This document shows positions 22,265-64,000 of a DNA stretch of 64,000 nt, in pieces (the first letter of the stretch is position 1; every line of letters begins with the position of its first letter). The position numbers and the translations under genes were made by a program. Source of the stretch: a virus; IMG/VR virus record IMGVR_UViG_3300039355_000071. The stretch is one strand, 5' to 3'. The notes beneath the pieces are model-generated. The model worked only from the letters and a program-made list of their open reading frames with translations. It did no database searches and was not told the DNA's origin.

Positions 22265-22336
22265 AGGGCATTTGCCAAGCGGTAAGGCACAGGATTTTGA
22301 TTCCTGCATTCACCAGTTCGAATCTGGTATGCCCTG
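22265..22336 (+). tRNA. tRNA-Gln (anticodon UUG)
   Basis: Manual cloverleaf. Acceptor AGGGCAT/ATGCCCT. Anticodon stem CAGGA/TCCTG with loop TTTTGAT. T arm ACCAG-TTCGAAT-CTGGT. 72 nt. Confidence 0.85.
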
Positions 22337-22593
22337 CTATGTAACATTCCACCCGGTATGTTTCAGAACGCAGATTTAAAATCTGTAAGCGCAGACTGTA
22401 AGCTGCGTAAGTTCTTATGGAGAATAACTCACTAAAGAGTTACATAGTCAACAGTTCGTTTCTTGATTTAAAATTTGTTGGCAAGCCTAGCGGTCGGCTA
22501 GTTGTGGATTACAGGTCACATTAATTCTTGTAAAGCTTTGTCCACTTACGGATGTATCCAATGTCAATACCCGTCAGTCTTGGCATTGGTTAT

Positions 22594-22667
22594 GGATCAT
22601 TAGCTCAGTTGGTCAGAGCAACCGGCTCATACCCGGTAAGTCGTAGGTTCGAGTCCTATATGATCCA
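22594..22667 (+). tRNA. tRNA-Met (anticodon CAU; elongator, initiator or Ile-lysidine type not resolved)
   Basis: Acceptor GGATCAT/ATGATCC. D arm GCTC-AGTTGGTCA-GAGC. Anticodon loop CTCATAC. T arm GTAGG-TTCGAGT-CCTAT. 74 nt. Confidence 0.85.
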
Positions 22668-22691
22668 TTACAAAATAATAGTAGAAGGGAG

Positions 22692-31171: not shown

Positions 31172-31196
31172 AGGTCGGTTGATAAATGACCGACCT
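31172..31196 (+). terminator. terminator-like hairpin
   Basis: AGGTCGGTtgataaatgACCGACCT. Confidence 0.45.
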
Positions 31197-31223
31197 TAAT
31201 ATAAAAGAAAAGGAGACAAAAAG

Positions 31224-33554: not shown

Positions 33555-34583
33555 ATGACAATTGAACAGATTAAGGACAAATTAAAATCAAAAGAGTATG
33601 ACTTCCTGAGAACAGATAAGAATTTGGGTAACAATATCATTATCTTAACTCTTGGTGGAAGTCATGCATATGGAATGGATAAAGAAGGATCTGATTTAGA
33701 TGTGAGAGGTATTGCACTCAACAGCAAATCAGATATTTTACTTGGAACAGACTTTGAACAGGTCGTAGATGTTGATACGGATACAACTATGTATTCGTTT
33801 AATAAAATGATACAGCTTTTAGCATCAAGTAATCCTAATACAATTGAACAACTTGGCTGTTTGCCTGAGCATTATTTACATTTATCTAAAATTGGTAAAG
33901 AATTATTGGATAATAGAAAAATGTTTCTTTCGCAGATTTGTGTTCATACCTTTGGAGGATATGCTGGTTCTCAGCTCAGACGTATGGAAAACAAGGCTGC
34001 AAGATTGGTTGGTCAGGCAGAAAATGAAGCCTACATTTTAAAAAGCATCAATAATGCAAGATATGAATTTAAAAACAGATATTACCCTCATGAAAATAGT
34101 GATGTGAAACTATATATTGATAAGGCTGTTCAAGAAGGATATGATAGTGAGATTTTTATGGATGTAAACTTGCAACATTATCCGTTAAGAGATTGGGCTG
34201 GCATGTGGAACGAAATGAAGTCCATTGTTAGTAGTTATAGCAAATTTGGTAAAAGAAATGAAAAGGCTGTAGCCCATGATAAATTAGGAAAACATATGGC
34301 TCATTTGATTCGATTATATATGATGTGTATTGATATTCTGGAAAAGGAAGAGATTATCACTTATAGATCAGATGAACACGATTTACTTATGAGTATTAGA
34401 AATGGAGAATATTTAGATGAAAATAGACAACCTATTTCTGAGTTCTATGATTTATTGAATGAATATGAAAAACGTTTTGAATACGCAAAAGAAAATACAT
34501 CTTTGCCTGATAAACCTGATTATAAGAAAATCAATGAATTTAAGATGTATGTAAATGAGAGAATTGTGAAAGGAGATATCTGA
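33555..34583 (+). CDS. Pol-beta-superfamily nucleotidyltransferase
   Basis: LTLGGSHAYGMDKEGSDLDVRGI is the GS-x(9-13)-DxD signature. First gene of the overlapping four-gene operon. Confidence 0.55.
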   Translation: MTIEQIKDKLKSKEYDFLRTDKNLGNNIIILTLGGSHAYGMDKEGSDLDVRGIALNSKSDILLGTDFEQVVDVDTDTTMYSFNKMIQLLASSNPNTIEQLGCLPEHYLHLSKIGKELLDNRKMFLSQICVHTFGGYAGSQLRRMENKAARLVGQAENEAYILKSINNARYEFKNRYYPHENSDVKLYIDKAVQEGYDSEIFMDVNLQHYPLRDWAGMWNEMKSIVSSYSKFGKRNEKAVAHDKLGKHMAHLIRLYMMCIDILEKEEIITYRSDEHDLLMSIRNGEYLDENRQPISEFYDLLNEYEKRFEYAKENTSLPDKPDYKKINEFKMYVNERIVKGDI

Positions 34584-35545
34584 TGGAAATATCAAATAGA
34601 GCAAAAGAAAGATTCTGTAAGGATTGCAATATACCAATTAGATTATTCCAAGAGCCATATTTTTTAGATAGAATTAAGCTTTTTGATGAGTTTTATGGAA
34701 CTGTTGACAAGTGGATTAGATTTGTAAGCGAATTACAGGAGTATAATTGTGAGCAGGATTATTTTGAAGAATATAATCATGTAAAGGATGCAGCTATTAC
34801 AAGTATCAAAGAGTCAGAGGCATATCAGAGATTTAATGCGGAAGATATGAACAAATTCACTGTGATTCATAAAAATTTATCTAATAAAGATATATTTAAG
34901 TCAACTAATACTGGAAGAGTTTTTATCAGTATTGATATGAGAAAGGCTAATTTTTCATCTTTACACGAATATGATAAGAATATATTTCGTGGGACTGATA
35001 CATGGGAAGATTTTATTTCTCAATTCACGGATAACGAACATATTGCAAATAGTAAATATATTCGCCAGGTTATTCTTGGTAATTGTAATCCTAAAAGACA
35101 TATCACCTATGAAAAATACCTTATGGATCAGACATTATCGTTATTATATGACATCATTGGTGAAGAGAGAATTGTATTCTTTTCAAATGATGAGATCGTT
35201 TATGATATGACAACTGCAAGTAATTTGCACATGTTAAGTCTTGTGAGAAATTGTGTTGAAGAAAGATTAAATACAAAATCTAATATTCCATTCAGAGTAG
35301 AGTTATTTTCACTCCACAAGATCAATGGTACTGACGGATACTGTAAGAAAATCTATAAAGAAAATGGAGAATATAATATTGAATTTAAGTGTTTGGATAA
35401 TTATATGATGCCATTCGTACTTAGATATTTCTTAGGAGAAGAAATTACTGAAAGTGACAAGGTGTTCTACCATGAAGGGCTATTGGCAAAGTTTATTGAA
35501 GAACCGAAAATTGAGGTGAATTTGGATGAAAAGATTGAAAATTGA
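34583..35545 (+). CDS. hypothetical protein (320 aa), operon partner
   Basis: ATGG overlap with the upstream stop. Confidence 0.5.
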   Translation: MEISNRAKERFCKDCNIPIRLFQEPYFLDRIKLFDEFYGTVDKWIRFVSELQEYNCEQDYFEEYNHVKDAAITSIKESEAYQRFNAEDMNKFTVIHKNLSNKDIFKSTNTGRVFISIDMRKANFSSLHEYDKNIFRGTDTWEDFISQFTDNEHIANSKYIRQVILGNCNPKRHITYEKYLMDQTLSLLYDIIGEERIVFFSNDEIVYDMTTASNLHMLSLVRNCVEERLNTKSNIPFRVELFSLHKINGTDGYCKKIYKENGEYNIEFKCLDNYMMPFVLRYFLGEEITESDKVFYHEGLLAKFIEEPKIEVNLDEKIEN

Positions 35546-36935
35546 AATTCCATCTGGTGCAAATGAAATTATCCATAGTCTACAAAATAATGGATATGAG
35601 GCATTTTTATGTGGCGGTGCAGTAAGAGATAGTATTCTTGGCAGAACAATTCACGATTATGACATTACAACTTCTGCCACACCAGATGAAATGATGGAAG
35701 TATTCAAGGATAAAAGAATTATTGAAACTGGATTACAACATGGAACTATTACCATTGTAATTGACGGTGAAGGATATGAATGTACCACTTACAGAATTGA
35801 CGGTAATTACTCAGATAGTCGTAGACCTGATAGCGTAACATTTACACGAAATCTTAAAGAAGATTTAAAGCGTAGAGATTTTACAATCAATGCGATGGCA
35901 TACAATGATGAAGTTGGACTTGTAGATCCATTTAATGGCATGGAAGATATTGAGCATTATAAAATCAGATGTGTTGGTAGAGCAGAGGATAGATTTTCAG
36001 AAGATGCTTTAAGGATTTTACGTGCTATTCGGTTTGCTTCACAATTGGGATTTGTAGTTGACTCTGATGTAAGTTTGAACATTCATAAAATGTATAAGAA
36101 TTTAGAGAATATATCTATTGAGAGAATCAACAGTGAGTTCTGTAAAATTGCATTATCAAGCGAGTTTTATATACAGATAGGATTATTCCGTGAAGTATTC
36201 TCGTTATTTATTCCTGAAATAAAAGATATGTTTGATTTTCCGCAGAATAATCCATATCACATCTATGATGTATGGAATCATACAGTACATGCAGTACATG
36301 CTTATGAATGTGATTGTGAACCCGACTTGAATCCAAGGGATTTGATTACATCATTGGCTGTATTTTTTCATGATATTGGAAAGCCACATTGTTATCAAGA
36401 TGGCGAGGATGGCATTAGACATTTCAAAGGTCATGGAAGAGTCAGTGCTGATATGACTGATACAATTATGAAAAGACTTCGTTTTGATAATGATACAAGA
36501 GAAAAGGTAATGCAGCTTGTTTATTATCATGATGCAACTTTTGAAGTGGGTGAAAAGTATATCAAGAGATGGCTCAATAAGATTGGAGAAGAACAATTTA
36601 GAAGATTACTGAATGTTCGTAGAGCAGATATTAAAGCGCAGGCTTATACAGATCAAGAAAGTAGGCTTCAGAAAATTGACAATATCGAATATATCTTAGA
36701 GGAAGTTTTACAGAAAGACGAATGTTTCTCACTGAAAGATTTGGCTGTTGATGGCAATGATTTGATTGAGATTGGATATAAGCCAGGAAAAGAAATAGGG
36801 AATACACTGAATTGTCTTTTGCAGTTAGTAATTGAAGGTGTATATCTAAACGAGAAAAGTGAGTTACTTAAATATGTTGAAACAACAAAAGAATGGATGA
36901 AGTTAGGAGAGAATTATAATGGTAAGATTATTTAG
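35526..36935 (+). CDS. cca: CCA-adding enzyme (tRNA nucleotidyltransferase with C-terminal HD domain)
   Basis: LCGGAVRDSILGRTIHDYDITT (GGAVRD plus DxD) and FFHDIGKPH (HD). Confidence 0.8.
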   Translation: MKRLKIEIPSGANEIIHSLQNNGYEAFLCGGAVRDSILGRTIHDYDITTSATPDEMMEVFKDKRIIETGLQHGTITIVIDGEGYECTTYRIDGNYSDSRRPDSVTFTRNLKEDLKRRDFTINAMAYNDEVGLVDPFNGMEDIEHYKIRCVGRAEDRFSEDALRILRAIRFASQLGFVVDSDVSLNIHKMYKNLENISIERINSEFCKIALSSEFYIQIGLFREVFSLFIPEIKDMFDFPQNNPYHIYDVWNHTVHAVHAYECDCEPDLNPRDLITSLAVFFHDIGKPHCYQDGEDGIRHFKGHGRVSADMTDTIMKRLRFDNDTREKVMQLVYYHDATFEVGEKYIKRWLNKIGEEQFRRLLNVRRADIKAQAYTDQESRLQKIDNIEYILEEVLQKDECFSLKDLAVDGNDLIEIGYKPGKEIGNTLNCLLQLVIEGVYLNEKSELLKYVETTKEWMKLGENYNGKII

Positions 36936-37842
36936 CCACAGTGATTTAGACGGAATCGGTTGTGGTATTTTAGCACAACTTGCATTTGGTAAAGATAATG
37001 TAGAAATTTCATATTGTGATTATGACAATATTGATTCAACTGTAAAGAAATATTTGGAAATAGAACAGGACGACACAATTCCAATTTATATTACCGATAT
37101 TCGTGTCAATGAAGAAACTGCTGAGTTGCTGAATAAAAGAGGCAATGTTCAGTTATTAGATCATCATCCAACAGCTCTTGGATTAAATAAGTATGATTGG
37201 TGTGATGTAGTTATCGAAGATTCCAAAGGAATTAAAACATCGGGAACTATGTTGTTTTATCATTACTTAGGTATGAATGGTTGTCTGAGTGAAGAGTTAG
37301 AGAATAATAAAGCGTTAGAGAGATTTGCTGAACTTGTGAGAGATTATGACACTTGGAGATGGTCAGAACTCGGTGATGAAGGTGTTATTTGTAAGCAGGT
37401 AAATGATTTATTATATCTTTACGGTAGAGATGATTTTATTCATTGGTGCATTTCAGAAATCCATGATGAGGTATTTCCAAGATTATATGCTAAAGATGAG
37501 GTTATTCTGAAGATTAAGCAGGATGAAATTGATAGATATATCGAAGAGAAGAATGAAACTATGTTTACCAGTCCTATGTGTGGTAAGGTTTGTGGTTTTG
37601 TATTTGCAGATAGGTTTGTTAGCGAATTAGGTAATAGACTTTGTAAAATGCATCCTGAAATTGATTTTGTGGCTATGATTGATATTGATGGTTGTACGGT
37701 ATCTTATAGAACCGTTAAAGAAGATATTGATCTTGGTAAAGATGTAGCAAGTTTATTTGGTGGCGGTGGTCATCCAAAAGCTGTTGGTTTAGAATTTAGT
37801 CAGAATATTAAGTCGAAAGTTATTGAGGAAATTTTTGAATAG
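36919..37842 (+). CDS. DHH/DHHA1 phosphoesterase (NrnA-like nanoRNase / pAp phosphatase family)
   Basis: SHSDLDGIGCG (motif I), LLDHHP (motif III), GGGGHPKAVG (DHHA1). Confidence 0.7.
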   Translation: MVRLFSHSDLDGIGCGILAQLAFGKDNVEISYCDYDNIDSTVKKYLEIEQDDTIPIYITDIRVNEETAELLNKRGNVQLLDHHPTALGLNKYDWCDVVIEDSKGIKTSGTMLFYHYLGMNGCLSEELENNKALERFAELVRDYDTWRWSELGDEGVICKQVNDLLYLYGRDDFIHWCISEIHDEVFPRLYAKDEVILKIKQDEIDRYIEEKNETMFTSPMCGKVCGFVFADRFVSELGNRLCKMHPEIDFVAMIDIDGCTVSYRTVKEDIDLGKDVASLFGGGGHPKAVGLEFSQNIKSKVIEEIFE

Positions 37843-38858: not shown

Positions 38859-40364
38859 TTGACAGAGAATAAAGAAAAAAATAATTATTGTGAGTTAAGT
38901 GTAATTGAGCTTTGTAGTGGTATTGGTGCGCAGATGAAGGGAATTGATAATACTCATCTATTTAATGCAAATATGATTGCAACAGCAGATTTAGACAAAG
39001 AAGTAGTAGTTAGTTATGCTGCAATGCATTGTGGTTTGACTAATGAGATGATTGAAAACTATGAAGATTATCCAAGCAAAGAAGAAATGGTAAGACAGCT
39101 TACAGATAAGAGACTTGGATATGATTTTAAAAAAGATGTTCCGTATGATTGGGAAAAACTTTCACGAAAGAAGAACAAGACAAAAGGTATTGAGAAATAT
39201 TGGTTAGCAGACCATATTTCACATAATCTTGGCGATATGATGCAGATTGAGTCACTGCCATATAGTGATTTACTTACATACTCGACTCCATGCACAGATT
39301 TGTCAATCGCCGGTAAACAGGAAGGATTAAAGTGGACATGTCATGATTGTGGTTGTGAATATGATCCATCAGAATTAGATGTAGATACTCGTTATACTTG
39401 CCCTAATTGTGGCAGTCACAACATTAAATCAACTCGTTCAGGTTTATTGTATGAAGTTGAGAGACTTCTTGTAAAAGCAAAAGAGAATAACACATTGCCA
39501 AAGTATTTGCTTATGGAGAATGTAGATGCTCTTGTATCAAAGAAGTATATTGACAGTTTTAAGGATTGGCTGATTCGGCTTGATAACTTGGGATATAACT
39601 CATATTATCAGACAATCAATGCAAAGAACACAGGTGTTCCACAGAATCGTAATAGAATCTTCTGTATCTCTATTCGTAAGGATATTGATACCAAGTCTTT
39701 TGAATTTCCACAGCCTTTTGACACAGGAATCAGATTAAAGGATTTATTAGAAACAGATAGCAGTGTTTTGGCGAAATATTTCTTATCTGATGAAGTACAG
39801 AAAAGACTTCAGATAACAGATCCAAAATTTAAAAAAAATATTGTTGGCACTACAAAACCTGAATTCAGAACTATCGGTCAGAGAGATTTAGTTTATCAGC
39901 AGGATTCAGTAATGGGTACTTTAGTGGCAACTGATTATAAACAGCCAAAACAGATTCTTGCAGATTCAAATAATATAAAAAGACTTTTTAATATTTATGG
40001 TGAAAATAAAGGAACTGGATTCGCAGGAAATGTTTGGGACAAAGATTATATTTCTCCAACAATAACAACATGCCAGGGAGGAAATCGGCAACCAATGGTC
40101 GAAGAAGATAGAGACAATTTAAGAGTTGTGAGAAAGCTCACACCAAAAGAGTGCCACAGGCTCATGGGATTCGATGATATTGATTATGAGAACTGTAAAG
40201 CAGTTGGAATGTCTGATACCCAGGGATATAAACAAAGCGGTAACAGTATAGTGACAACTTGCATCTCTTTGTTGATTGAGCATTTATATAAGGCTCAGTA
40301 TGACAATACATATATTTGTACAGATGAGAAGATGGCAAATTTTCATCAGCCACAAGTGGATTAA
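38859..40364 (+). CDS. DNA (cytosine-5)-methyltransferase with an inserted zinc ribbon
   Basis: Motif I ELCSGIGAQ, IV PCTDLSIAGK, VI ENVDALV, VIII QNRNRIFCISIRKD, X GNSIV. CHDCGCEY..CPNCGSH lies between motifs IV and VI. TTG start as annotated; the true start is uncertain. Confidence 0.75.
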   Translation: MTENKEKNNYCELSVIELCSGIGAQMKGIDNTHLFNANMIATADLDKEVVVSYAAMHCGLTNEMIENYEDYPSKEEMVRQLTDKRLGYDFKKDVPYDWEKLSRKKNKTKGIEKYWLADHISHNLGDMMQIESLPYSDLLTYSTPCTDLSIAGKQEGLKWTCHDCGCEYDPSELDVDTRYTCPNCGSHNIKSTRSGLLYEVERLLVKAKENNTLPKYLLMENVDALVSKKYIDSFKDWLIRLDNLGYNSYYQTINAKNTGVPQNRNRIFCISIRKDIDTKSFEFPQPFDTGIRLKDLLETDSSVLAKYFLSDEVQKRLQITDPKFKKNIVGTTKPEFRTIGQRDLVYQQDSVMGTLVATDYKQPKQILADSNNIKRLFNIYGENKGTGFAGNVWDKDYISPTITTCQGGNRQPMVEEDRDNLRVVRKLTPKECHRLMGFDDIDYENCKAVGMSDTQGYKQSGNSIVTTCISLLIEHLYKAQYDNTYICTDEKMANFHQPQVD

Positions 40365-41404: not shown

Positions 41405-41602
41405 ATGGTAGACATTCAGTGTAAAGACGGAAAATATATTATTGAGGCAAGGATTCATAGTGAAGTTGATACAAATGATATTGCAAAAGTGCAGGAAAGA
41501 TTTACTTCTGATTGTGCTTATGAGTTTGCAGAAGCTATGAGAGAAGCAGTAAACGTTAGCCATTTGGTAATGAAAGAACAAAGAAAAGAGGTAACAAAAT
41601 GA
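41405..41602 (+). CDS. small hypothetical protein (65 aa)
   Basis: RBS AAGGAGAATAAG. Confidence 0.45.
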   Translation: MVDIQCKDGKYIIEARIHSEVDTNDIAKVQERFTSDCAYEFAEAMREAVNVSHLVMKEQRKEVTK

Positions 41603-42111
41603 GCAAAACATTAATCGTAGTAGATATGCAGAATGATTTTATTGATGGCTCACTCGGTACAAAGGAAGCACAGACAATTGTATCGAATGTAGCAAAGAAA
41701 ATTAAGGAGTACAAGGATGCTGGTAAACAGGTAATCTTTACAAGAGACACACACCCTGAGAATTATTTGGAAACATATGAGGGTAAGCATCTTCCTGTTA
41801 CTCACTGTGTAAAGAATACTGTTGGTTGGCAGATTTCAGATAGGTTAGATTTTGATATTGAGAACGATATTCTGATTGATAAGCCTACTTTTGGTTGGTT
41901 AAACTGGAAGGATTTTGGATTTGAAAGTGTTGAGGTTTGCGGATTATGCACCGACATCTGTGTGGTTTCAAATGCACTTATTATTAGAGCAAATTATCCT
42001 GAGATTGATATTACAGTAGATGCAAGCTGTTGTGCAGGTGTCACACCTGATACTCACAATGCTGCATTAGCAACTATGAAGATGTGTCAGATCGAAGTGA
42101 TTGGAGAGTAG
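41599..42111 (+). CDS. isochorismatase-family cysteine hydrolase (nicotinamidase PncA-like)
   Basis: LIVVDMQNDF and CGLCTDICV (catalytic Asp and Cys context). 170 aa. Confidence 0.6.
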   Translation: MSKTLIVVDMQNDFIDGSLGTKEAQTIVSNVAKKIKEYKDAGKQVIFTRDTHPENYLETYEGKHLPVTHCVKNTVGWQISDRLDFDIENDILIDKPTFGWLNWKDFGFESVEVCGLCTDICVVSNALIIRANYPEIDITVDASCCAGVTPDTHNAALATMKMCQIEVIGE

Positions 42112-42114
42112 AAT

Positions 42115-42951
42115 ATGATTAAAATTAATGGCGAAATTGTAACAATCAACAAGTTTCCAGATGGAACACCAAGAGTAAATATTGATATAAACAACATTGA
42201 GGAAGACTCTTATGATGGCTCTCCTTGTATTTGGATTGAATGGATTTATGAGAGTAACGATGAGATATTTTATCTGATGTTAGTAAAGAAACATCTTGAA
42301 AGATTTTTTACTAATGTGGATTATTATTTGTCTCTTCCATATATTCCTAATGCACGAATGGATAGAGTAAAAAATGATGATGAAGTATTCACATTGAAGT
42401 ATTTTTGCGATTTTATCAATTGGTTAGGATTTTCATCAGTTTATGTTTTAGATGCTCATAGCGATGTTTCTACTGCATTACTCAATAATTGTGTAAAAGA
42501 AAATCCAAAAGAGTATGTTGATAAAGCTATTTCAAAGATTGGTATGAGAAATCTTGTACTTTATTTCCCAGATGCAGGTGCAGCTAAGAGATATTCAGAT
42601 TTATTTCCTGAGTTACCATATTGTTATGGTGAAAAGAAGAGAGATTGGAAGACTGGTAAAATCCTTGGATTAGACATTAGAACAAATGGTATTGATTTGA
42701 AAGATAAAGCTGTGTTAATGATTGATGATATTATCGCATATGGCGGTTCACTTTATTATAGTGCAGAAGAATTGAAGAAACATGGTGTAACTGAGATTTA
42801 TGCATATGCCACTCATACAGAGAATTCAATTCTTAATAAAGAAAAAGGAACATTAATCAAATCTTTGGAGAATAATACTGTGAACAGATTATTTACCACA
42901 AACAGTTTATTTAATGGTAGTCATGAAAAAATTACGGTTATGGAGGTTTAA
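42115..42951 (+). CDS. ribose-phosphate pyrophosphokinase (Prs)-like enzyme; candidate ADPR-pyrophosphate synthetase (Adps) of a NARP1 module
   Basis: KFPDGT (N-terminus), VLDAHSDV, FPDAGAAKRY, VLMIDDIIAYGGSL (PRPP-binding-like loop). Confidence 0.65.
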   Translation: MIKINGEIVTINKFPDGTPRVNIDINNIEEDSYDGSPCIWIEWIYESNDEIFYLMLVKKHLERFFTNVDYYLSLPYIPNARMDRVKNDDEVFTLKYFCDFINWLGFSSVYVLDAHSDVSTALLNNCVKENPKEYVDKAISKIGMRNLVLYFPDAGAAKRYSDLFPELPYCYGEKKRDWKTGKILGLDIRTNGIDLKDKAVLMIDDIIAYGGSLYYSAEELKKHGVTEIYAYATHTENSILNKEKGTLIKSLENNTVNRLFTTNSLFNGSHEKITVMEV

Positions 42952-42955
42952 AATT

Positions 42956-44416
42956 ATGGATAACACAATGGCTTTATTATTATCAGATACTTATAAACAG
43001 TGTCATGATCGCATGTACCCAAATGGTTTGACTAAATTGGTGTCGTATTGGGTGCCTCGAAAATCAATGTTAGAGAATCAGAATGAAATGGTTTTCTTTG
43101 GATTGCAGGCATTTATCAAAGAATATTTAATGGGAGATTTTCAGAAAAATTTCTTCGATTTATCGGAAGATGAGATGTTAACTCTTTATACAGATTCGAT
43201 GGATGTACAGATTGGTAGAGACAACTATGATTTAGATAAAATTGTAGAGCTTCACAGATTAGGATATTTACCACTTGAGATTAGAGCATTGCCAGAAGGT
43301 ACACTTGTTCCTATGGGTGTTCCTTGTATTGAGATTACAAATACGGATGATAAATTTGCTTGGCTTGTTCAGTGGATTGAATGTATTCTTCAGGTAGAAT
43401 TATGGAAACCTTGTTGTCATGCAACTATCGGTCATATGTATCGTGAAATTGCAGATTATTGGTATAACAAGACAACAGACGGATTGCCTGGAAATATGGC
43501 TTGTGCGGATTTTGGCATGAGAGGAATGTCTTGTATGGATGAAGCTACAAGATGTTCAGCATCATGGTTGCTTTCATTTAATAAGACATCTACAATTCCA
43601 GCAATTAATTATATTGATAGATATTACAATGCCGATTGTAAGAATAATGGTATTGGAATCGGTGCTGTCTCAACTGAGCATTCTGTAATGGGTGCTAATT
43701 TCTCAATTGATGGAGATGAGATTACGTTTGTTAAAAGACTTTTAACAGAGTTATATCCAAATACATCATTTAGTATGGTTTCAGATACTTATGATTATTG
43801 GAATATGGTAAATAATATTCTTCCACAGTGTAAAGAAGAGATTATGAATCATAATGGAAAGCTCTTGGTTCGTCCTGATAGTGGTGATATTGTAGAGATT
43901 TCAGTTAAAACAGTTGAAAGGTTGTGGGAGATTTTTGGTGGTTCTGTAAATGGTAAAGGTTATAAGGTATTAAATCCGCATATCGGTATTATTTATGGTG
44001 ATGGCTGCACACTTTCTAATGTAGAAACTATTTGGAAAGAATTAGAAAAGCGTGGTTTCGCAGCTAATAATATTGCTTATGGTGTAGGAGCTTTTTGCTT
44101 CACTGCAATCGTTGAAAACGGCAAGATGATTGTTGTTACAAGAGATACTTTTGGTATTGCAATGAAAGCTACATATGGAGTAATTGATGGCAAGAAGTTA
44201 ATGATTTTCAAAGATCCTAAGACAGATACAAGTCACTTAAAGAAATCTCATAAAGGATGTTGTAGAGTATACGATGATAACGGTGAATTAAAGTGTCAAG
44301 ATCAGTTACTTGAAATGAGTGATAACAGTTTACTTACTACCGTATTTAAAGATGGAGAATTAGTAAGAGAAGATACATTTGCGGATATTAGAAACAGAAT
44401 GTACGGAGGTAAGTAA
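42956..44416 (+). CDS. NAMPT-family type II phosphoribosyltransferase; candidate nicotinamide-ADPR transferase (Namat)
   Basis: N-terminal LLLSDTYKQCH (the D-[ST]-Y-K motif of NAMPT/PncB). About 487 aa from the RBS-supported ATG 42956. Confidence 0.65.
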   Translation: MDNTMALLLSDTYKQCHDRMYPNGLTKLVSYWVPRKSMLENQNEMVFFGLQAFIKEYLMGDFQKNFFDLSEDEMLTLYTDSMDVQIGRDNYDLDKIVELHRLGYLPLEIRALPEGTLVPMGVPCIEITNTDDKFAWLVQWIECILQVELWKPCCHATIGHMYREIADYWYNKTTDGLPGNMACADFGMRGMSCMDEATRCSASWLLSFNKTSTIPAINYIDRYYNADCKNNGIGIGAVSTEHSVMGANFSIDGDEITFVKRLLTELYPNTSFSMVSDTYDYWNMVNNILPQCKEEIMNHNGKLLVRPDSGDIVEISVKTVERLWEIFGGSVNGKGYKVLNPHIGIIYGDGCTLSNVETIWKELEKRGFAANNIAYGVGAFCFTAIVENGKMIVVTRDTFGIAMKATYGVIDGKKLMIFKDPKTDTSHLKKSHKGCCRVYDDNGELKCQDQLLEMSDNSLLTTVFKDGELVREDTFADIRNRMYGGK

Positions 44417-44877
44417 TGATTAAAATTATTGATGGAGACTTACTCACTTCGAACACTGATATTATTGCACACCAGGTTAATTGCAAAGGTGCTTTTAATT
44501 CTGGTGTTGCAAAAGCGATCCGTGATTATGATGTGCAAGTATATAAAGATTATCATAGTTTTTGTTCGATTAATACACCTGAACAATTATTGGGTTCTGT
44601 TAGATATTTTCAGTCTAATATTGACGCAAGAATATATGCAAATTTATTTGCACAAAAATCATATGGCTATGACGGAAAACAGTATACAGATATTGACGCT
44701 TTAAGAAAATGTTTTGAAAATTTGAGATCATATGCAGTTTTGGAAAATATGAGTATTGCAATGCCATATAAAATTGGATGTGTTCGTGGCGGTGCAAATT
44801 GGGAAGAAGTGTATCAAATGATAAATGATATATTTGAAAATTGTAATATTGAATTATGGAGGTTAGATAAAGGATGA
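44416..44877 (+). CDS. macro-domain (ADP-ribose-binding/processing) protein
   Basis: IIDGDLLTSNTDIIAHQVNCKGAFNSGVAKAI. Confidence 0.65.
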   Translation: MIKIIDGDLLTSNTDIIAHQVNCKGAFNSGVAKAIRDYDVQVYKDYHSFCSINTPEQLLGSVRYFQSNIDARIYANLFAQKSYGYDGKQYTDIDALRKCFENLRSYAVLENMSIAMPYKIGCVRGGANWEEVYQMINDIFENCNIELWRLDKG

Positions 44878-45632
44878 GTAATTTTGATGCTAAGAAAGTA
44901 AAGAATGAGATCGTAGAGTGGATTAGAGATTGGTTTGAACAGAATGGTAAAGATTGTATGGCAGTAGTTGGAATTTCTGGCGGTAAGGATTCAAGCGTTG
45001 TTGCTGGCTTATGTTGTGAAGCTCTTGGAAAAGATAGAGTTTTTGGTGTAATGATGCCACAGGGAGAACAGCCAGATATTGATTATTCTCGAATGCTTAT
45101 AGACCATCTTGGAATCGACAGTTGTGTTGTAAATATAGGCAATACAGTTCGCACTTTAAAGCATGAGATTAAACCACAGTTGGGAGATCATTGGTCAAAG
45201 CAGACTTCTACAAATCTCCCTGCTCGTATTCGTATGACTACGCTTTATGCAGTATCGCAGACAGTAAATGGTCGTGTCGCTAATACGTGTAATCTTTCAG
45301 AAACATTACTATCTTGGGAAACCAGATGGGGTGATGCAGTTGGAGATTTTGCACCAATTAGCGACTTAACAGTAAAAGAAGTGAAAGCTATTGGATATGA
45401 ACTTGGATTGCCAAATGAATTAATCGAAAAAATTCCGTCTGATGGACTGTGTGGAAGTACAGATGAAGATGCATTGGGATTTAAATACTCTGTTATGGAT
45501 AGATATATTAGAACAGGCGAGATTGACGACAAAGATATTAAAAAGAAAATTGATAATCGAGTAGAAAAATATCGGTTTAAGAGAATGCCTATTCCTTATT
45601 ATAAAACAGGTATGGAAAGATATGTAGACTAA
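44874..45632 (+). CDS. nadE: NH3-dependent NAD+ synthetase
   Basis: VVGISGGKDSSVVAGL (PP-loop SGGxDS). 252 aa. Confidence 0.7.
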   Translation: MSNFDAKKVKNEIVEWIRDWFEQNGKDCMAVVGISGGKDSSVVAGLCCEALGKDRVFGVMMPQGEQPDIDYSRMLIDHLGIDSCVVNIGNTVRTLKHEIKPQLGDHWSKQTSTNLPARIRMTTLYAVSQTVNGRVANTCNLSETLLSWETRWGDAVGDFAPISDLTVKEVKAIGYELGLPNELIEKIPSDGLCGSTDEDALGFKYSVMDRYIRTGEIDDKDIKKKIDNRVEKYRFKRMPIPYYKTGMERYVD

Positions 45633-45633
45633 A

Positions 45634-46833
45634 ATGGCAGAAGACTTAACTAATTTACAATTTGGAAAATTAACAGTCATCAAACGTGGAGACAACGATA
45701 AAAGCGGACATGTGAGATGGTGGTGTAAATGTGACTGTGGCAACCCTAAATTGATTTTAGTTGCCGCAGGACATTTAAAATCAGGACATACTCAATCATG
45801 TGGATGTATAAGAAGAGATAATATTAAACCACAAAAGAATTTAGAAGGAAAAAGATTTGGGAAATTAATTGTAAAAGAATTTCTTGGTATAAAAAATCAT
45901 AGATCATTATGGAGTTGTGATTGTGATTGTGGTAAGAAAATTAACGCTTTATCATCGTCTTTAACTTCTGGAAAACTTAAGTCATGTGGATGTTTATCTT
46001 CTGTAGCTGAGTTCGAATTAAGCCAGTTCTTGACAGATGAACAAATTATATTTGATACGCAATATAAGTTTGATGATTGTAAATATAAAAGAAGATTGCC
46101 ATTCGATTTTGCAATTTTTCATCCACAAAATAAGAAACTCTTATTTTTAATTGAACTACATGGAGAACAGCATTATTTTCCGTTTACATTTAATAGTGAG
46201 TCTGATATGCAAAAGAAGGAAAATTTTTTGCATAGAAAACATTTGGATAAATTAAAAGAAGATTATTGTAGTGAAAATAATATTCCATTGTTAATTATTA
46301 GATATACAAATTTTCAAACAAAAGAAAAAATTGTAAAAGGGTTTTATGAAAAGCTCTTGCAAAAGAATATTACATTTGATGATTATATATTTTCATCAAA
46401 ACAAATAAAGGATGATTTACAAGTAAAGCATAAACGTGTCTATAAAAGAAAAGTAGTCCAAATAGATATACCCAACAAGAATATTATAAGAGAATATAAT
46501 AGTATGGAAGAGGCATATAAGATAACTGGAATATCATCTGGACAGATTTCGGATTGTTGTAAGGGTAATTGTAAAACAGCAGGTGGATATGCCTGGGCAT
46601 ATAATAACGGAAACGTTAATATTGAAGAAGTAATTAAACGTGCAACAATTCCAAATAGAACAAATGCAGTTGTGATTTTCCAAAAAGATAAAAATGGAAA
46701 TATTATAAAAGAGTGGCAAAGTATAACAGAAGCAGCACATTCTTTGGGAGTAAGTCATCAAGGTATTCAAGCGTGTTGTTCAGGAAAGCAGAAAACTTGT
46801 AAAGGATTTGTTTGGAATTATAAGAAAGATTGA
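45634..46833 (+). mobile_element. homing-endonuclease-like gene: zinc-ribbon repeats, DUF559/Vsr-like PD-(D/E)xK nuclease core, C-terminal NUMOD-like DNA-binding repeats
   Basis: FGKLxV..W.C.CDCG..SCGC repeated twice. LPFDFAIFHPQNKKLLFLIELHGEQHY. Duplicated EY.S..EA...TGIS...I..CC.GK.KT..G..W.Y modules. Confidence 0.45.
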
Positions 46834-54965: not shown

Positions 54966-55856
54966 ATGGAATTATTAGGAAGATACATAAATGGTAACTT
55001 TAAAACTACAATTTTTAGCGATGGAACAAAGATCAGAGAGACAGAAGATGATGAGTTTGTACCAGTTTTTGCGGAGAATATGGATATAAAAATTTGTAAT
55101 TTTTGCGATATGGGATGTCCATTCTGCCATGAAGGTAGTACAACAGATGGAAAATTTGGAGATATTTTGAATGAGAAATTCATTAATACACTTCATCCAT
55201 ATCAGGAAGTTGCTCTTGGTGGTGGAGATGCTACAAGTCATCCTGACTTAATTCCATTCTTACAGAAACTCAAAGATAGAAAAGTTATTGTAAACATGAC
55301 GGTAAATCAGATTCATTTTGAGAAGAAACAGGATTTAATCAAAAAGCTTGTTGATGAAAAACTTATCTATGGTCTTGGCGTATCGCTCGTAAATCCAACA
55401 AAGAATTTTATTGAACTTATTAAGCAATATCCAAATGCGGTCATTCATGTAATCAACGGGGTATTAAAACCATCGGACGTAGAAGCTTTAGAGAATAATA
55501 ATCTGAAGATGCTGATTCTTGGTTATAAACATTTAAGACGTGGTGATGATTTTTATTCAGAAGATCATGAAAACATTGTTGTAAAGCAGAATTGGCTATA
55601 TGAAAATCTTGCAGATATTATTGAGAAATTTAAGGTAGTTAGTTTTGATAATCTTGCCATCGACCAGTTAAATGTTAAGAGATTGATGTCTGATGATGAA
55701 TGGAATGAGTTTTATATGGGCGATGATGGAACAATGACTTACTACATCGACATGGTTGAGCGTAAATTTGCAAGAAGCTCAACAGCAGCATTTGATAAGA
55801 GATATGACTTATTGGACTCAGTAGATGATATGTTCCAGAAGATTTTATCTGAGTAA
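54966..55856 (+). CDS. radical SAM enzyme (4Fe-4S, CxxxCxxC)
   Basis: ICNFCDMGCPFCHEG and GGGDATSHPDL (Gly-rich SAM motif). 296 aa. Confidence 0.6.
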   Translation: MELLGRYINGNFKTTIFSDGTKIRETEDDEFVPVFAENMDIKICNFCDMGCPFCHEGSTTDGKFGDILNEKFINTLHPYQEVALGGGDATSHPDLIPFLQKLKDRKVIVNMTVNQIHFEKKQDLIKKLVDEKLIYGLGVSLVNPTKNFIELIKQYPNAVIHVINGVLKPSDVEALENNNLKMLILGYKHLRRGDDFYSEDHENIVVKQNWLYENLADIIEKFKVVSFDNLAIDQLNVKRLMSDDEWNEFYMGDDGTMTYYIDMVERKFARSSTAAFDKRYDLLDSVDDMFQKILSE

Positions 55857-57429: not shown

Positions 57430-58440
57430 TTGGTACAGAAAGCTAATACAATTGAAGAATTATTACAGGATTGTCCTGTAAACTCAATAATAGGAGACAA
57501 TTTAATAAGAGCGTGGTCAAAAATTAACAGCCACAAATATTTATATATACTATGTTCTATTTCAGGTGGATCAGATAGTGATGATATGTTGGATATTGTT
57601 TATAGATGCGATAAAAGCAATAAAGTGAAGTATGTCTGGTTTGATACTGGATTAGAATATTCTGCAACAAAAGAGCATCTCAAATATTTAGAAAATAAAT
57701 ATGATATAACAATTGATTCATATAAAGCAATTAAGCCAATTCCACTATCGTGTAAACGATATGGACAACCATTTCTATCTAAGCAAGTCAGTGAATTTAT
57801 CCAAAGATTACAAAAACATAACTTCCAATGGGAAGACGAGGATTTTGATACGCTATATAAGAAGTATCCGAAGTGCAAATCTGCATTGGAATGGTGGTGT
57901 GGAATAAAAGGTAATGGTAGTCAATTTAATATCACTCATAATAAATGGCTAAAAGAATTTATGATTGAAAACCCACCAACATTTAAAATTTCTAACAAAT
58001 GCTGTCAATATGCGAAGAAAGATGTCTCACATAAGCTTTTAAGAGAAGGTGTATATGGCGATGGAAAAATACCATTTGACCTAAATATTGTAGGTGTAAG
58101 AAAAGCCGAAGGTGGAGCAAGAGCAACTGCATATAAAAGTTGTTTTGATGAAAATGATTCTGGTTGTGATAATTATAGACCTTTATTTTGGTATAAAGAC
58201 TCAGACAAAATAGACTATGAAAATTCTTATGACATTGAGCACAGCAAGTGTTATACAGAATATGGACTGAAAAGAACTGGTTGTGCAGGTTGCCCATTTG
58301 GTAGAGATTTTGAATACGAATTAGAAGTAATTCAAAAGTATGAACCGAAACTTTATAAGGCTGTTAATAATATTTTTGGAGATTCTTACGAATATACAAG
58401 GAAGTATCGTGAATTTGTAAAGAATATGAATAAAAAGTAG
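57430..58440 (+). CDS. PAPS-reductase-family PP-loop ATP-pyrophosphatase-like protein
   Basis: LCSISGGSDSD (PP-loop) and IVGVRKAEGGARA (the G-x-R-x-x-E-S/G-x-x-R signature of CysH/DndC-like enzymes). CAGCPFG near the C-terminus. Confidence 0.5.
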   Translation: MVQKANTIEELLQDCPVNSIIGDNLIRAWSKINSHKYLYILCSISGGSDSDDMLDIVYRCDKSNKVKYVWFDTGLEYSATKEHLKYLENKYDITIDSYKAIKPIPLSCKRYGQPFLSKQVSEFIQRLQKHNFQWEDEDFDTLYKKYPKCKSALEWWCGIKGNGSQFNITHNKWLKEFMIENPPTFKISNKCCQYAKKDVSHKLLREGVYGDGKIPFDLNIVGVRKAEGGARATAYKSCFDENDSGCDNYRPLFWYKDSDKIDYENSYDIEHSKCYTEYGLKRTGCAGCPFGRDFEYELEVIQKYEPKLYKAVNNIFGDSYEYTRKYREFVKNMNKK

Positions 58441-60903: not shown

Positions 60904-61127
60904 ATGAGAGCATACAAATGTGATGTTTGTGGTAAGTATTGTGAAGATTGTTTTGAAATTAATGATGATACATTTGATGTATTCCCATCAGATTTCGTTG
61001 ACAGAGGACAATATGATAAAAAAAGGTGGAAGTACGAGATTTGTGTTCTGAATGTTATGTAGATATTAAAAATTATATTCATAACAAAGTATTCAATAGG
61101 TTTAAGAAAGAGGAAGAATCGAAGTAA
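60904..61127 (+). CDS. zinc-ribbon protein needing a -1 shift at an A7 run (61018-61024) to join its two CxxC halves
   Basis: Frame 0 gives CDVCGKYC..DKK then junk and a stop at 61062. The frame reached by one extra A continues VEVRDLCSECYVDIKNYIHNKVFNRFKKEEESK to 61127. Confidence 0.4.
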
Positions 61128-61180
61128 AGATTCGATTCTTGCGGAAATTTTTACAGAGAATATAAGAATAGGAGGTACAA

Positions 61181-61789
61181 ATGGGAACACGAAATTTAAC
61201 AATTGTACATAGTAATGGCGAATATAAAGTTGCACAGTATGGACAGTGGGATGGGTATCCTGAAGGTTTAGGCGTACAATTGCTTGAATATCTTAAAGGA
61301 ATAAATATTAACGAATTAAGAAATTCAGTGAATGATTGTACATATTTGTCTAAGGAAGATTTTGATGAGATAAATAAAAATATTGATGAAGCAATGAAGG
61401 ATAATCCAAGATTTCCTTGGCAGAAGTTTTATCCAGAATTATCAAGAGATACAGGTGGAGATATTTTAAAGTTAATTATGTTTAAGAATAAAACAAAGTT
61501 GAAAAACTCATTAAACTTTGCAGCAGATAGCCTTTTCTGTGAGTGGGCTTATGTTATTGATTTGGATAAGAATACTTATGAAGTATACAAAGGTTTTAAT
61601 AAAGAGCCACTAGATGAATCTGAAAGGTTTTATTTTTTAACACCAATTGCAGAGAAAGAGTATCGAGAAAATCCCAAAGAATATTATCCTGTTAAATTTG
61701 TTACAGAATATAGTCTTAGTAGTCTTCCTGACGAAAAAGATTTCCTCGAAGATATTAGTAAAATCTGTGGTTTTGATGAGGAAGAGTAG
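61181..61789 (+). CDS. hypothetical protein (202 aa)
   Basis: RBS AATAGGAGGTACAA. Conserved upstream repeat. Confidence 0.55.
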   Translation: MGTRNLTIVHSNGEYKVAQYGQWDGYPEGLGVQLLEYLKGININELRNSVNDCTYLSKEDFDEINKNIDEAMKDNPRFPWQKFYPELSRDTGGDILKLIMFKNKTKLKNSLNFAADSLFCEWAYVIDLDKNTYEVYKGFNKEPLDESERFYFLTPIAEKEYRENPKEYYPVKFVTEYSLSSLPDEKDFLEDISKICGFDEEE

Positions 61790-61855
61790 ACTTGGCATAT
61801 CGGTTTTCCTTGCGGAAATTTAAAAGGAGAATATAAGAGTAGGAGGTAAAATTAA

Positions 61856-62434
61856 ATGCATTATTGCGTTCATTTACTCACAAAAGAATTACCAAGTGAG
61901 AATAAAATTGCAGCAATTATGAAGCCATACAATTCAGAACTTGTATATGGCTCAGATGAAGAAGACGAACAGATTGATTATCCAGTTTTTACATGGGATT
62001 ACTACCGAATTGGTGGCAGGTATAAGGCTGAATTAAAACTAAAAGTAGATGAAGAAGGATCTGCAAACAGAGAATATTATAATTGGGGCTACTATGACAG
62101 ACAAGATAGAAACGGCAGATTGTTTTGGTCAAGTCTTTTATCAACATTAAAAGAGAATATTACACCTGAATGGATGTATCATGAGGAAGATTGGTTCATG
62201 AATATGGGTTTTGGCGATGGATATATTCTTGTTGATGGAGCAAAGCAAAGTGATGTTTTAAATATTGGCAAGCTTGGATGTTACATATGTATTCTTCCTG
62301 ATGGTTCAGCTATTGCAAGAGATTCATGGAATGGTAAAGATATTATCAAAGATGAAAAATTCGATGAAAAATATAAACAGGCTATAACAGATAATATGGA
62401 TGGATTTATTACAGTGCTTGATATCCATGATTAA
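61856..62434 (+). CDS. hypothetical protein (192 aa)
   Basis: RBS GTAGGAGGTAAAAT. Same upstream repeat. Confidence 0.55.
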   Translation: MHYCVHLLTKELPSENKIAAIMKPYNSELVYGSDEEDEQIDYPVFTWDYYRIGGRYKAELKLKVDEEGSANREYYNWGYYDRQDRNGRLFWSSLLSTLKENITPEWMYHEEDWFMNMGFGDGYILVDGAKQSDVLNIGKLGCYICILPDGSAIARDSWNGKDIIKDEKFDEKYKQAITDNMDGFITVLDIHD

Positions 62435-62467
62435 GAAGAAGTATCGGTTTCCATGGGAGGTGAAAAA

Positions 62468-62752
62468 GTGAGAATAGAAGAAATTGCTTTAAGACAAGAA
62501 GCAAGACAAATGTTATGTGAAGCTGGTTTAAGTAAAGAGGAACTTAAAGAACTGGTATTGAAAGATATAGATGATAAAGTAATTCAAGCGATTGAAAGTA
62601 AAATCAAGGGTGTTGATTTTGAACAAATGATTATGGATAGAGTTGATAGAGCTTTAACCAAAGCAGTTGATGATATTGTTCGAAGAGAAGTAGAGGGATA
62701 TTTTTATAACAGAAGGCTCAATATTCGTGCAACTGCTTCATTTGAAGAATAA
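62468..62752 (+). CDS. hypothetical protein
   Basis: GTG start after GGGAGGTGAAAAA. Confidence 0.4.
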   Translation: MRIEEIALRQEARQMLCEAGLSKEELKELVLKDIDDKVIQAIESKIKGVDFEQMIMDRVDRALTKAVDDIVRREVEGYFYNRRLNIRATASFEE

Positions 62753-62794
62753 AAAATCGCAGTAAATTTCGATTTCTTGCGAGGAGGTGAAATC

Positions 62795-63208
62795 TTGGAG
62801 AAAGTAATTAAATATAGATGTTCTGAATGTGGAAAATTATTTGACACACCTGATGATGCTTTTGATTGTGAATCAAGACACAAAAGAATTGAGAGAGCTA
62901 ATGAGATGCTTAAGAAAGGATATACATTAAAACAAATCAATGATGAGTGTGAGATTTGGGATTCTATACCAGAATATTTAGAAAATGTAAACAAGGATAA
63001 TTGCTTCAAAATCAGTTATTGGCAATATTGTGACAAACCTGCATATCAAATTGTTAACATCTATTTTGACGGAAGAGTATATATAAGAGGTTGTGGTTCA
63101 CGGAGTGGATATTATGGTAATAGTCTTAGATTAGATAATAGTATTTTGAAAGATCCAAGACCAAAGGAAGAGTTATTTATAGATAGTAGATATACAAGTA
63201 GATGGTAA
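62795..63208 (+). CDS. zinc-ribbon protein (137 aa)
   Basis: TTG start after GAGGAGGTGAAATC. CSECGKLF..C.CESRH. Confidence 0.4.
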   Translation: MEKVIKYRCSECGKLFDTPDDAFDCESRHKRIERANEMLKKGYTLKQINDECEIWDSIPEYLENVNKDNCFKISYWQYCDKPAYQIVNIYFDGRVYIRGCGSRSGYYGNSLRLDNSILKDPRPKEELFIDSRYTSRW

Positions 63209-63248
63209 TTGTATTTGGAGAATAATATATTGAAAGAGAGGTACATAT

Positions 63249-64000
63249 ATGCCAGTACATGATGATTTAGGCTGTCGCATGAAGACATTTTATGAGCAGA
63301 TTCCTAAGACAAAATTAATGAGAAGATGCCCAGTTGCTATCCGCATTGATGGAAAAGCGTTTCATACATTCACAAGAGGATTCCAGAAACCGTTTGATGA
63401 AGTGTTAATCAGGTCTATGCAGGAAACAATGAAATACTTATGCGAGAATATTCAAGGCTGTGTTCTTGGTTACACACAATCAGACGAGATTACATTAATC
63501 CTTGTTGATTATAAGAAGCTCACATCTTCAGCATGGTTTGATTATGAGGTGCAGAAAATTTGTAGTATTACAGCAAGTATGACTACGATGGCATTTAATA
63601 AATTTTTTGAAAAGTATGTTGACGAATATAGATTTAGTAAATGGGATGGTGTTTCAAAATATGAGGATGGTACATGGGGATATATTCAGACATTACTAAA
63701 TGCAGTTGACAAAGGTGCAATGTTTAATGCTCGTTGCTTCAATATTCCAAAAGAAGAAGTAACAAATCTCGTATATTGGCGACAACTTGACGCTTCTCGT
63801 AACTCAATTCAGATGGTAGGTCAAGCCAATTTCTCACACAAAGAATTACAGAATAAGTCATGTAATGATATTCAGGATATGCTTATGATTCAAAAAGGTA
63901 TTAACTGGAATGATTTGCCGACTTATCAGAAGAGGGGAAGCTGTTGTGTAAAACGTGAATTCTGGGTTGATAAAAATGATGGCGAAGAGTTTAGTAAAGA
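63249..64000 (+). CDS. Thg1-like protein (tRNA-His guanylyltransferase family 3'-5' polymerase), truncated by the window end
   Basis: RBS AGAGAGG. AIRIDGKAFHTF, YTQSDEITLIL and YWRQLDASRNSI match the Thg1 signatures VVRLDGRNFHRF, YGQSDEYSFVF and SWRQADCHINNL. Confidence 0.7.
   Translation, partial: MPVHDDLGCRMKTFYEQIPKTKLMRRCPVAIRIDGKAFHTFTRGFQKPFDEVLIRSMQETMKYLCENIQGCVLGYTQSDEITLILVDYKKLTSSAWFDYEVQKICSITASMTTMAFNKFFEKYVDEYRFSKWDGVSKYEDGTWGYIQTLLNAVDKGAMFNARCFNIPKEEVTNLVYWRQLDASRNSIQMVGQANFSHKELQNKSCNDIQDMLMIQKGINWNDLPTYQKRGSCCVKREFWVDKNDGEEFSK

Follow-up and report, generated by a model that had tools for sequence, protein, structure and literature searches.

An intact Thg1-like protein gene with a probable part in repairing tRNA 5' ends in a likely gut phage of Lachnospiraceae

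The gene running off the end of the analysed DNA (hereafter the window, 64,000 nucleotides of the IMG/VR virus record IMGVR_UViG_3300039355_000071) belongs to the Thg1-like proteins (TLPs), a family of 3'-5' nucleotidyltransferases, or reverse RNA polymerases. It probably encodes a functional bacterial-type TLP and acts as an accessory (auxiliary) gene of a large Lachnospiraceae gut phage or prophage, its product repairing 5'-truncated tRNAs and keeping the tRNA pool usable. Direct support for this reading comes from the integrity of the gene and its family, from an active site with all its residues, from the fold and the signature of purifying selection, and from the phage context and the recurrent proximity of RNA-repair genes in relatives. 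By analogy with characterised homologues, we infer that the protein would be enzymatically active, would take tRNA as its substrate and would help the phage to withstand damage or host defence. Though genuine, the gene is nothing unusual: the same annotation already stands on this exact protein and on about 160 sequenced phages. Its first identification was correct and the accompanying interpretation reasonable.

Gene integrity and family assignment

The TLP gene starts with an ATG at 63249 on the plus strand, and its frame remains open through 64000, so the window holds 250 codons without a stop and two bases of codon 251, out of 297 (63249..64000, +). A Shine-Dalgarno-like GAGAGG at 63236-63241 (+), separated from the ATG at 63249 by a 7-nt spacer, is the putative ribosome-binding site of the gene. 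No longer ORF competes with the TLP frame on either strand, the overlapping ORFs being only 40-58 aa long and located on the minus strand. A scan for promoters and terminators around the gene returned nothing exceeding shuffled expectation.

The first-pass annotation had described the ORF as cut by the window edge and had proposed to extend the contig. The extension recovered the full length. Over its final 12,145 nt the window is 100% identical to a metagenome contig of 301,371 bp (ena:ERZ27239619:k119_23589), to which both an exact match of a neighbouring protein and the homologues of the partial TLP pointed; the window as a whole corresponds to positions 59042-123041 of that contig. On it the frame, rather than ending right after the window, has 47 further codons before a TAA, giving a product of 297 aa (P0001). 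The remainder of the gene with its TAA stop lies at 10753-10894 of locus L007, just past the window end. Since the frame on the metagenome contig reaches its stop at 297 aa, the gene is intact in the genome and truncated only by the window. Its median dN/dS against 65 relatives is 0.27 and therefore indicates purifying selection.

Matches in Pfam, PHROG and PDB, all far beyond chance, bear out the identification of the cut ORF as a Thg1-like gene. In the HMM search that had been suggested along with it, the Pfam Thg1 model PF04446 scored 103.9 bits against the 250-codon translation, above its gathering threshold of 29.2 (E = 7.6e-30) and across positions 3-130 of the 130 in the profile, and the result was unchanged with the full-length 297-aa protein. 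PHROG 4717, "tRNA-His guanylyltransferase", was matched at E = 8.5e-86. Among solved structures, the TLP of Bacillus thuringiensis (BtTLP, PDB 4kgk) gave E = 2.3e-60 with the partial protein and 8.6e-62 over the full length, followed by 5axk (Thg1-like, E = 1.2e-12), yeast Thg1 (2e-10) and human Thg1 (4.4e-8). Judged from its sequence, the window protein is a member of the bacterial, repair-type TLP branch rather than a eukaryotic Thg1.

The model of the Thg1 C-terminal domain, PF14413, reached 23.0 bits against the full-length protein, under its gathering cut-off of 26.3, and the structural match described below spans this region. The same model also remains below threshold for the TLP of phage Bcp1 and for the homologue of locus L019, and it therefore appears to perform poorly on bacterial-type TLPs. 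NCBIfam contains no model for the Thg1/TLP family, and its sole match was a spurious sub-threshold one to PBP1A. The PADLOC defence models gave no match to P0001 at E <= 1e-3, and a role of the protein in a defence system is on this ground not supported. Homologues are abundant: at least 8000 were scored, the best 120 of these being 82-100% identical to the window TLP. In a library clustered at 50% identity, the matches number 5564 representatives at E <= 1e-3, of which 1230 reach E <= 1e-30.

Predicted catalytic site and structure

Residue roles were taken from Hyde et al. 2013 (PMC3701042), and positions were derived from alignment to BtTLP and human THG1. In the full-length alignment D30, D75 and E76 of BtTLP, and D29, D76 and E77 of human THG1, have their equivalents in the catalytic carboxylates D34, D79 and E80; the acidic residues whose loss, according to the first-pass annotation, would have spoken against a Thg1-like enzyme are thus all in place. 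The NTP-binding arginines R32, R162 and R178 correspond to R28, R131 and R147 of BtTLP, and E16 to its E12, the glutamate that positions these arginines. Three further residues, K47, S78 and N185, have activation-step residues as their aligned counterparts (K44, S75 and N161 in ScThg1). Among 31 aligned close homologues the active-site positions are invariant, save K47, which is at least 90% conserved. Across 95 diverse homologues (39-84% identity) they are kept in 89-93 sequences, with K at the K47 position in 59 and R in 32.

An AlphaFold run with a shallow alignment (31 sequences, 77-100% identity) yielded an unusable model with a pLDDT of 44.6. It was replaced by a run with the 95-sequence diverse alignment, in which the AF2 monomer model reached a pLDDT of 95.1 and a pTM of 0.91. 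When this predicted model was compared with the PDB by Foldseek, the top 32 matches were all Thg1 or TLP chains. The best of them, 4kgm_A (BtTLP), aligned to the predicted structure with a TM-score of 0.93, normalised on the target, at E = 2e-28. The protein is accordingly modelled with the complete two-domain Thg1/TLP fold. The RNA-bound complexes among the Foldseek matches (3wc1, 5axm, 5axn and 7cv1) all contain tRNA.

Relation to characterised and phage-borne TLPs

BtTLP (4KGK/4KGM) is the closest solved relative by these matches, clearly similar wherever the two align, and its metal-binding carboxylates, NTP-binding arginines and activation residues align one for one with those of the window protein. 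The two differ in length, BtTLP having 245 aa against 297 aa (52 residues more in the window protein), and in source, a Bacillus genome against a likely gut Lachnospiraceae phage. The extra length falls into the linker between palm and fingers (approximately residues 127-156) and the segment before the C-terminal strand (approximately 243-262). Family members differ greatly in the length of both regions (9-60 and 11-54 residues, respectively), and the additional 52 residues are therefore not distinguishing; the idea that the longer segments (127-156 and 243-262) define a new variant was rejected. BtTLP itself is 75-77% identical to TLPs of Bacillus Herelleviridae phages, which places it in a phage-associated subfamily.

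Rao et al. (PMC3061083) report that BtTLP prefers 5'-truncated tRNAs (5-160-fold), acts in a template-dependent manner and has no specificity for tRNA-His; templated N-1 addition to tRNA-His is possible in vitro, and yeast thg1 is complemented weakly. As to the role of bacterial TLPs, PMC3701042 offers "perhaps in tRNA quality control". Eukaryotic Thg1 (human 3OTB, yeast 5XOX) shares the fold and the two-metal active site with the window protein but is distant from it (E = 4e-8, 17-19% identity in structural alignment) and represents the branch that adds G-1 to tRNA-His. At a deeper level, the Thg1 palm is homologous to the nucleotide-polymerising palms of GGDEF and Cas10 proteins (PMC2904730; PMC12657218).

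TLPs have also been annotated in isolated phages, where gp164 of Bacillus phage Bcp1, gp147 of Fusobacterium phage Fnu1 and gp378 of Bacillus phage G share PHROG 4717. They are 45-51% identical to the window protein over more than 90% of the length, and their setting resembles that in the window: a lone gene amid small hypothetical genes of a large phage genome, with no adjoining tRNAs. Their carriers, however, belong to a different phage lineage. In GenBank, 162 phage records hold a TLP homologue, most among the records listed being annotated as tRNA-His guanylyltransferase.

The carrier phage and the gene neighbourhood

The claim that the gene is phage-encoded has stood up well, being supported by the bacteriophage label in nr, by 113 IMG/VR viral contigs and by phage-like surrounding genes. 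An identical protein is already named "MAG TPA: tRNAHis guanylyltransferase [Bacteriophage sp.]" in nr and "tRNA(His) 5'-end guanylyltransferase" in JGI. The 113 viral contigs bearing homologues are mostly 100-190 kb long, and in the 80 of them that were examined the proteins are 61-86% identical to the window TLP. Gene content is dense, with mostly co-oriented small ORFs, and includes an I-HmuI-like homing endonuclease, an integrase, a primase-helicase and a Pol III alpha gene; relatives carry YorH, YorF and YopX genes of the SPbeta type. The examined stretches of ena:ERZ27239619:k119_23589 contained no structural genes.

By the primase-helicase, the nearest GenBank record is an uncultured 176-kb faecal phage (MT835469.1), whose protein is 91% identical. 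Megablast of positions 61000-64000 of the window against GenBank phages gave no match, and the same search with positions 30000-54999 gave one short match to a methylase gene only, at 71% identity. Related genes occur in bacterial genomes, namely Lachnospiraceae MAGs, Robinsoniella peoriensis and Roseburia inulinivorans, and the host is on this basis probably a member of Lachnospiraceae. The likely carrier is a phage or prophage of large size from Lachnospiraceae of the human gut.

The first-pass annotation had further placed the TLP gene next to tRNA genes and a CCA enzyme. For the window this wording is loose, the distance upstream of the TLP gene being 41 kb for the tRNA genes and 26 kb for the CCA enzyme; for some relatives it is literally true. 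In the window the TLP gene adjoins neither an RNA gene nor an RNA-repair gene, and its immediate neighbours encode small proteins without a family match. The ORF directly upstream (62777..63208, +; 137-143 aa) has an N-terminal zinc-ribbon-like CxxC...CxxxH motif and no family match. Beyond the window end follow genes for a DprA/YpsA-like protein, DUF488, YopX, an AAA_24 ATPase, SSB, the primase-helicase, a PD-(D/E)XK nuclease and Pol III alpha.

The only tRNA genes within the 64-kb window are those of tRNA-Gln(UUG) (22265..22337, +) and tRNA-Met(CAU) (22593..22668, +). Both have a fully paired acceptor stem, with A1:U72 in tRNA-Gln, and in neither is the CCA encoded. The RNA-repair genes form a co-oriented block of four with overlapping stops and starts (33555-37842). 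It opens with an RlaP-family nucleotidyltransferase (33555..34583, +; PF10127 E = 3.3e-21, PHROG 388), a family that Pfam describes as "RNA repair pathway DNA polymerase beta family". Next comes a 320-aa protein (34583..35545, +) without a Pfam, PHROG or PADLOC match, which occupies the same position in the relative L034. The third gene encodes the CCA-adding enzyme, a tRNA nucleotidyltransferase (35526..36935, +; PF01743 E = 9e-38, PF13735 E = 2e-11, PHROG 2244 E = 5e-72) with PolyA_pol head, HD and tRNA_NucTran2_2 domains. The block closes with a DHH-family phosphoesterase (36919..37842, +; PHROG 26954 E = 5e-29, with a weak DHHA1 match).

The wider context was assessed by clustering the ORFs of 92 TLP-bearing loci and by a tRNA scan over 88 TLP loci. 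A conserved operon partner was sought in the 92 loci and none was found, the best neighbour occurring at position -1 in 16 of the 92. This commonest -1 neighbour is the zinc-ribbon-like ORF, which is also present without a TLP gene in L006 and is probably not an obligate partner. Approximately 70 of the 88 loci have no tRNA within 10 kb of the TLP gene, and approximately 21 have an RNA-repair gene within that distance. Some arrangements are close: in L032 and L034 a distance of 1.0-1.2 kb separates the TLP gene from the genes for RlaP, the 320-aa protein and the CCA enzyme downstream of it; in L019 its start lies 36 nt past the last of six arrayed tRNAs, and a PTH2 homologue comes next; in L021 it comes after five tRNAs and a tmRNA; and in L058 an RNA-ligase-like gene follows it. 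The gene for tRNA-Gln(UUG) recurs in 13 loci. This recurrent linkage to tRNA arrays, the CCA-adding enzyme and PTH2 points to tRNA as the substrate.

The TLP gene is accessory and dispensable, as five of six closely related loci with the same flanking genes do without it. Sister contigs devoid of the gene have, in roughly the corresponding place, an RNA ligase, a KTI12/AAA_33 kinase, a metallophosphoesterase and PTH2; this suggests a variable region where different RNA-repair cassettes are exchanged among relatives. In L011 and L012 an IS605 OrfB/TnpB gene is located just upstream of the TLP gene.

Discussion

By homology to BtTLP, the window enzyme would bind a tRNA that lacks one or a few nucleotides at its 5' end. 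The 5'-monophosphate would then be activated with ATP to a 5'-adenylylated intermediate, and the missing nucleotides would be added in the 3'-5' direction, copied from the 3' acceptor strand by Watson-Crick pairing. Such an activity would most likely keep both host tRNAs and the phage's own tRNAs usable during infection. The TLP may represent one tool of an RNA-repair kit shared with the RlaP nucleotidyltransferase, the CCA-adding enzyme and the DHH phosphoesterase; in sister phages the kit would comprise an RNA ligase, a polynucleotide-kinase-like kinase, a metallophosphoesterase and a peptidyl-tRNA hydrolase.

The earlier proposal of a tRNA-protection strategy is a reasonable inference and had been published before (PMC7824862). 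In that work, Iyer, Anantharaman, Krishnan, Burroughs and Aravind (2021) described RlaP, the CCA-adding enzyme, Thg1, RNA ligases and PTH2 of jumbo phages as restoring RNAs damaged by host RNase effectors. RlaP, the CCA enzyme and Thg1 of this set are found in the window, and an RNA ligase, a kinase and PTH2 in sister contigs; the difference lies in the carriers, isolated jumbo phages there and here an uncultured gut phage whose IMG/VR relatives are mostly 100-190 kb long. The feature is thus already known, since the family has its own PHROG, databases already contain this very protein under a name, and the functional idea is in print. With the window the known cases grow by one, contributed by uncultured gut Lachnospiraceae phages that form an abundant family. 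It serves as confirmation, supplying a correct annotation and comparative backing, of modest weight, for the idea of an RNA-repair kit. As an experimental handle, the locus is no better than the approximately 160 cultured phages with the gene, several of which grow on tractable Bacillus hosts. Enzymes of this kind restore 5'-truncated tRNAs in vitro. That phages carry copies of the gene implies that tRNA 5'-end integrity limits infection.

Phage T4 Pnkp/Rnl1 repairs tRNA cut by the host anticodon nuclease PrrC. The likeness to the TLP is a functional analogy only, that of a phage enzyme restoring damaged tRNA: the enzymes are unrelated, and the T4 lesion is a break in the anticodon loop, whereas that addressed by a TLP is the loss of 5'-terminal nucleotides. 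For T4 the host nuclease is known, while none is known for TLPs. The T4 tRNA-repair system is mentioned in PMC2610378. Those bacterial tRNA-targeting defences that the searched papers cover cut the anticodon loop or the 3' CCA tail (PMC12851939). In the literature searched, no defence that removes tRNA 5' nucleotides was described, and no experiment on a phage TLP, including its activity, was found. RNase J of Firmicutes is a 5'-3' exonuclease, and one may speculate that it could generate 5'-truncated tRNA ends. More specifically, the TLP could be a counter-defence against an undiscovered immune or stress nuclease of the host that shuts down translation by trimming tRNA 5' ends or acceptor stems. 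Together with RlaP and the CCA enzyme it would then rebuild both acceptor strands, and its presence or absence would reflect an arms race of cassettes (TLP, RNA ligase plus kinase, PTH2). We regard this as tentative and less likely than not.

The family name and the database annotations as "tRNA-His guanylyltransferase" would rather suggest true tRNA-His maturation, in which the TLP adds G-1 to a phage tRNA-His, or to a host tRNA-His lacking it, in the manner of eukaryotic Thg1. The templated N-1 addition in vitro and the weak yeast thg1 complementation by BtTLP, as given in PMC3061083, are consistent with such an activity. Nevertheless, this is quite improbable, as neither the 64-kb window nor the 88 scanned TLP loci contain a tRNA-His gene, the protein resembles BtTLP (E = 9e-62) much more than it does human (4e-8) or yeast (2e-10) Thg1, and the same paper has BtTLP favouring truncated tRNAs 5-160-fold. 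The paper also states that G-1 is genome-encoded in most bacteria, which would therefore need no G-1-adding enzyme (PMC3061083). A still weaker candidate is 5'-editing of the phage's own tRNAs. In amoeba mitochondria, mismatched 5' nucleotides of the acceptor stem are encoded in the tRNA genes, removed and then re-made by a TLP. The phage lineage does have tRNA genes, tRNA-Gln(UUG) among them in its 13 loci, and tRNA arrays immediately precede the TLP gene in L019 and L021. The acceptor stems argue strongly against editing: of 28 tRNAs found by ARAGORN in the window and loci, 25 have 7/7 acceptor pairs and three a single mismatch, only one of which falls within the first three 5' positions (position 2, tRNA-Gln of L088). 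In Rfam alignments, too, the acceptor pairs of the two window tRNAs are all standard, and most TLP loci lack a nearby tRNA. For the sampled tRNAs editing was therefore rejected, with 25/28 acceptor stems fully paired, and we consider it extremely unlikely in general.

Repair of truncated tRNAs, the favoured reading, must also be set against substrates other than tRNA. The enzyme might repair or extend the 5' end of another structured RNA, or 5'-adenylylate RNA ends for ligation, in phage RNA metabolism or counter-defence. Several observations leave room for this: the immediate neighbourhood of the gene is not conserved, its downstream neighbours here are DNA-replication genes, the palm is homologous to those of GGDEF and Cas10 (PMC2904730; PMC12657218), and natural substrates of bacterial TLPs are not known to have been established, PMC3701042 going only as far as "perhaps in tRNA quality control". 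Yet nothing positive speaks for any particular alternative, the solved RNA-bound complexes retrieved by the fold search all hold tRNA, the complete fold is kept with the longer segments falling in length-variable regions of the family, and there is no PADLOC match. Given also the recurrent linkage to tRNA arrays, the CCA-adding enzyme and PTH2, a non-tRNA substrate appears unlikely, although less so than tRNA-His maturation. Finally, the presence/absence polymorphism among near-identical relatives and the IS605 OrfB/TnpB genes nearby in L011 and L012 would fit a passenger gene, decaying or without function, that sits in a mosaic accessory region. This is hardly tenable for a full-length gene with an intact frame, all catalytic residues kept and a median dN/dS of 0.27, which belongs to a family of at least 8000 scored homologues, the best 120 of them sharing 82-100% identity and the 31 that were aligned all retaining the active site.

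Surroundings of the Thg1-like polymerase gene

The region of the Thg1-like 3'-5' polymerase (TLP) gene and the 137-aa ORF directly 5' of it (window 62777..63208, plus strand) bears the trace of a transposon-related gene in two related loci. An IS605 OrfB/TnpB (Cas12f-like) gene lies directly upstream of this gene pair in L011 (5122-6420) and L012 (1476-2774), whose TLPs are 100% identical to that of the window, and the insertion marks mobile-element activity at this site. Past the window end, as seen in L007, the locus that continues the TLP gene, the stop codon is followed by a 530-nt gap in which the palindrome CACTATATATAGTG occurs twice, at a spacing of about 26 nt (L007 10905-10950; 11-56 nt past the stop), and which could thereby include an operator or other regulatory site. 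An uncalled ORF whose N-terminus is hydrophobic also lies in this gap (about 10990-11406 in L007).

A few kb before the TLP gene, the window encodes a radical-SAM/Fe-S oxidoreductase-like protein (54966-55856; PHROG 16999) and a PAPS-reductase-family protein (57430-58440; PHROG 424), both of which may be nucleic-acid modification enzymes. In 22 related viral contigs (L022, L026, L028, L033, L036, L039, L042-L053, L056, L079, L086 and L093), a gene for a short, 363-aa adenylosuccinate-synthetase-family protein (Pfam E = 7e-34) precedes the TLP gene by about 2-8 kb; the window has no such gene. The protein is a possible PurZ-like enzyme, which would point to 2-aminoadenine DNA.

RNA repair, tRNA genes and NAD+ metabolism

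Four genes of one orientation, whose stop and start codons overlap (window 33555-37842), encode, in order, an RlaP nucleotidyltransferase, a 320-aa protein, a CCA-adding enzyme with PolyA_pol, HD and tRNA_NucTran2_2 domains, and a DHH phosphoesterase, an arrangement suggestive of an RNA 3'-end repair operon. The 320-aa member matched no family and keeps its position in the relative L034. The window tRNAs, tRNA-Gln(UUG) (22265-22337) and tRNA-Met(CAU) (22593-22668), both need a CCA-adding enzyme, because the 3' CCA is encoded in neither. The first pair of the tRNA-Gln is A1:U72, and 13 related loci have a tRNA-Gln(UUG) in the vicinity of the TLP gene.

Both tRNA genes belong to an island-like stretch (window 19651-25590) that also encodes a tyrosine integrase, an oppositely oriented HTH regulator, a PemK-family toxin and its 84-aa partner, and a 468-aa GmrSD_N protein with a PADLOC match to NsnA (1e-11). 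This stretch may be a phage-borne defence or addiction module.

A cluster for NAD+ salvage and synthesis (window 41599-46833) comprises genes for an isochorismatase/PncA-like protein, a PRPP-synthetase-like protein, NAMPT, a 153-aa unknown protein and the NAD synthase NadE, and is directly followed by an I-HmuI-like HNH homing endonuclease gene. We take this cluster to resemble the NAD-reconstitution pathways of phage counter-defence.

Other genes of the window

The C5-cytosine DNA methyltransferase (window 38859-40364) carries an additional N-terminal zinc-ribbon-like segment; residues 137-192 match HypA weakly. Window 28695-32804 encodes a 685-aa DUF8224 protein and a 526-aa Band_7/flotillin protein. 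A prohibitin-family gene is also present in Fusobacterium phage Fnu1, where it lies 0.6 kb downstream of the TLP gene.
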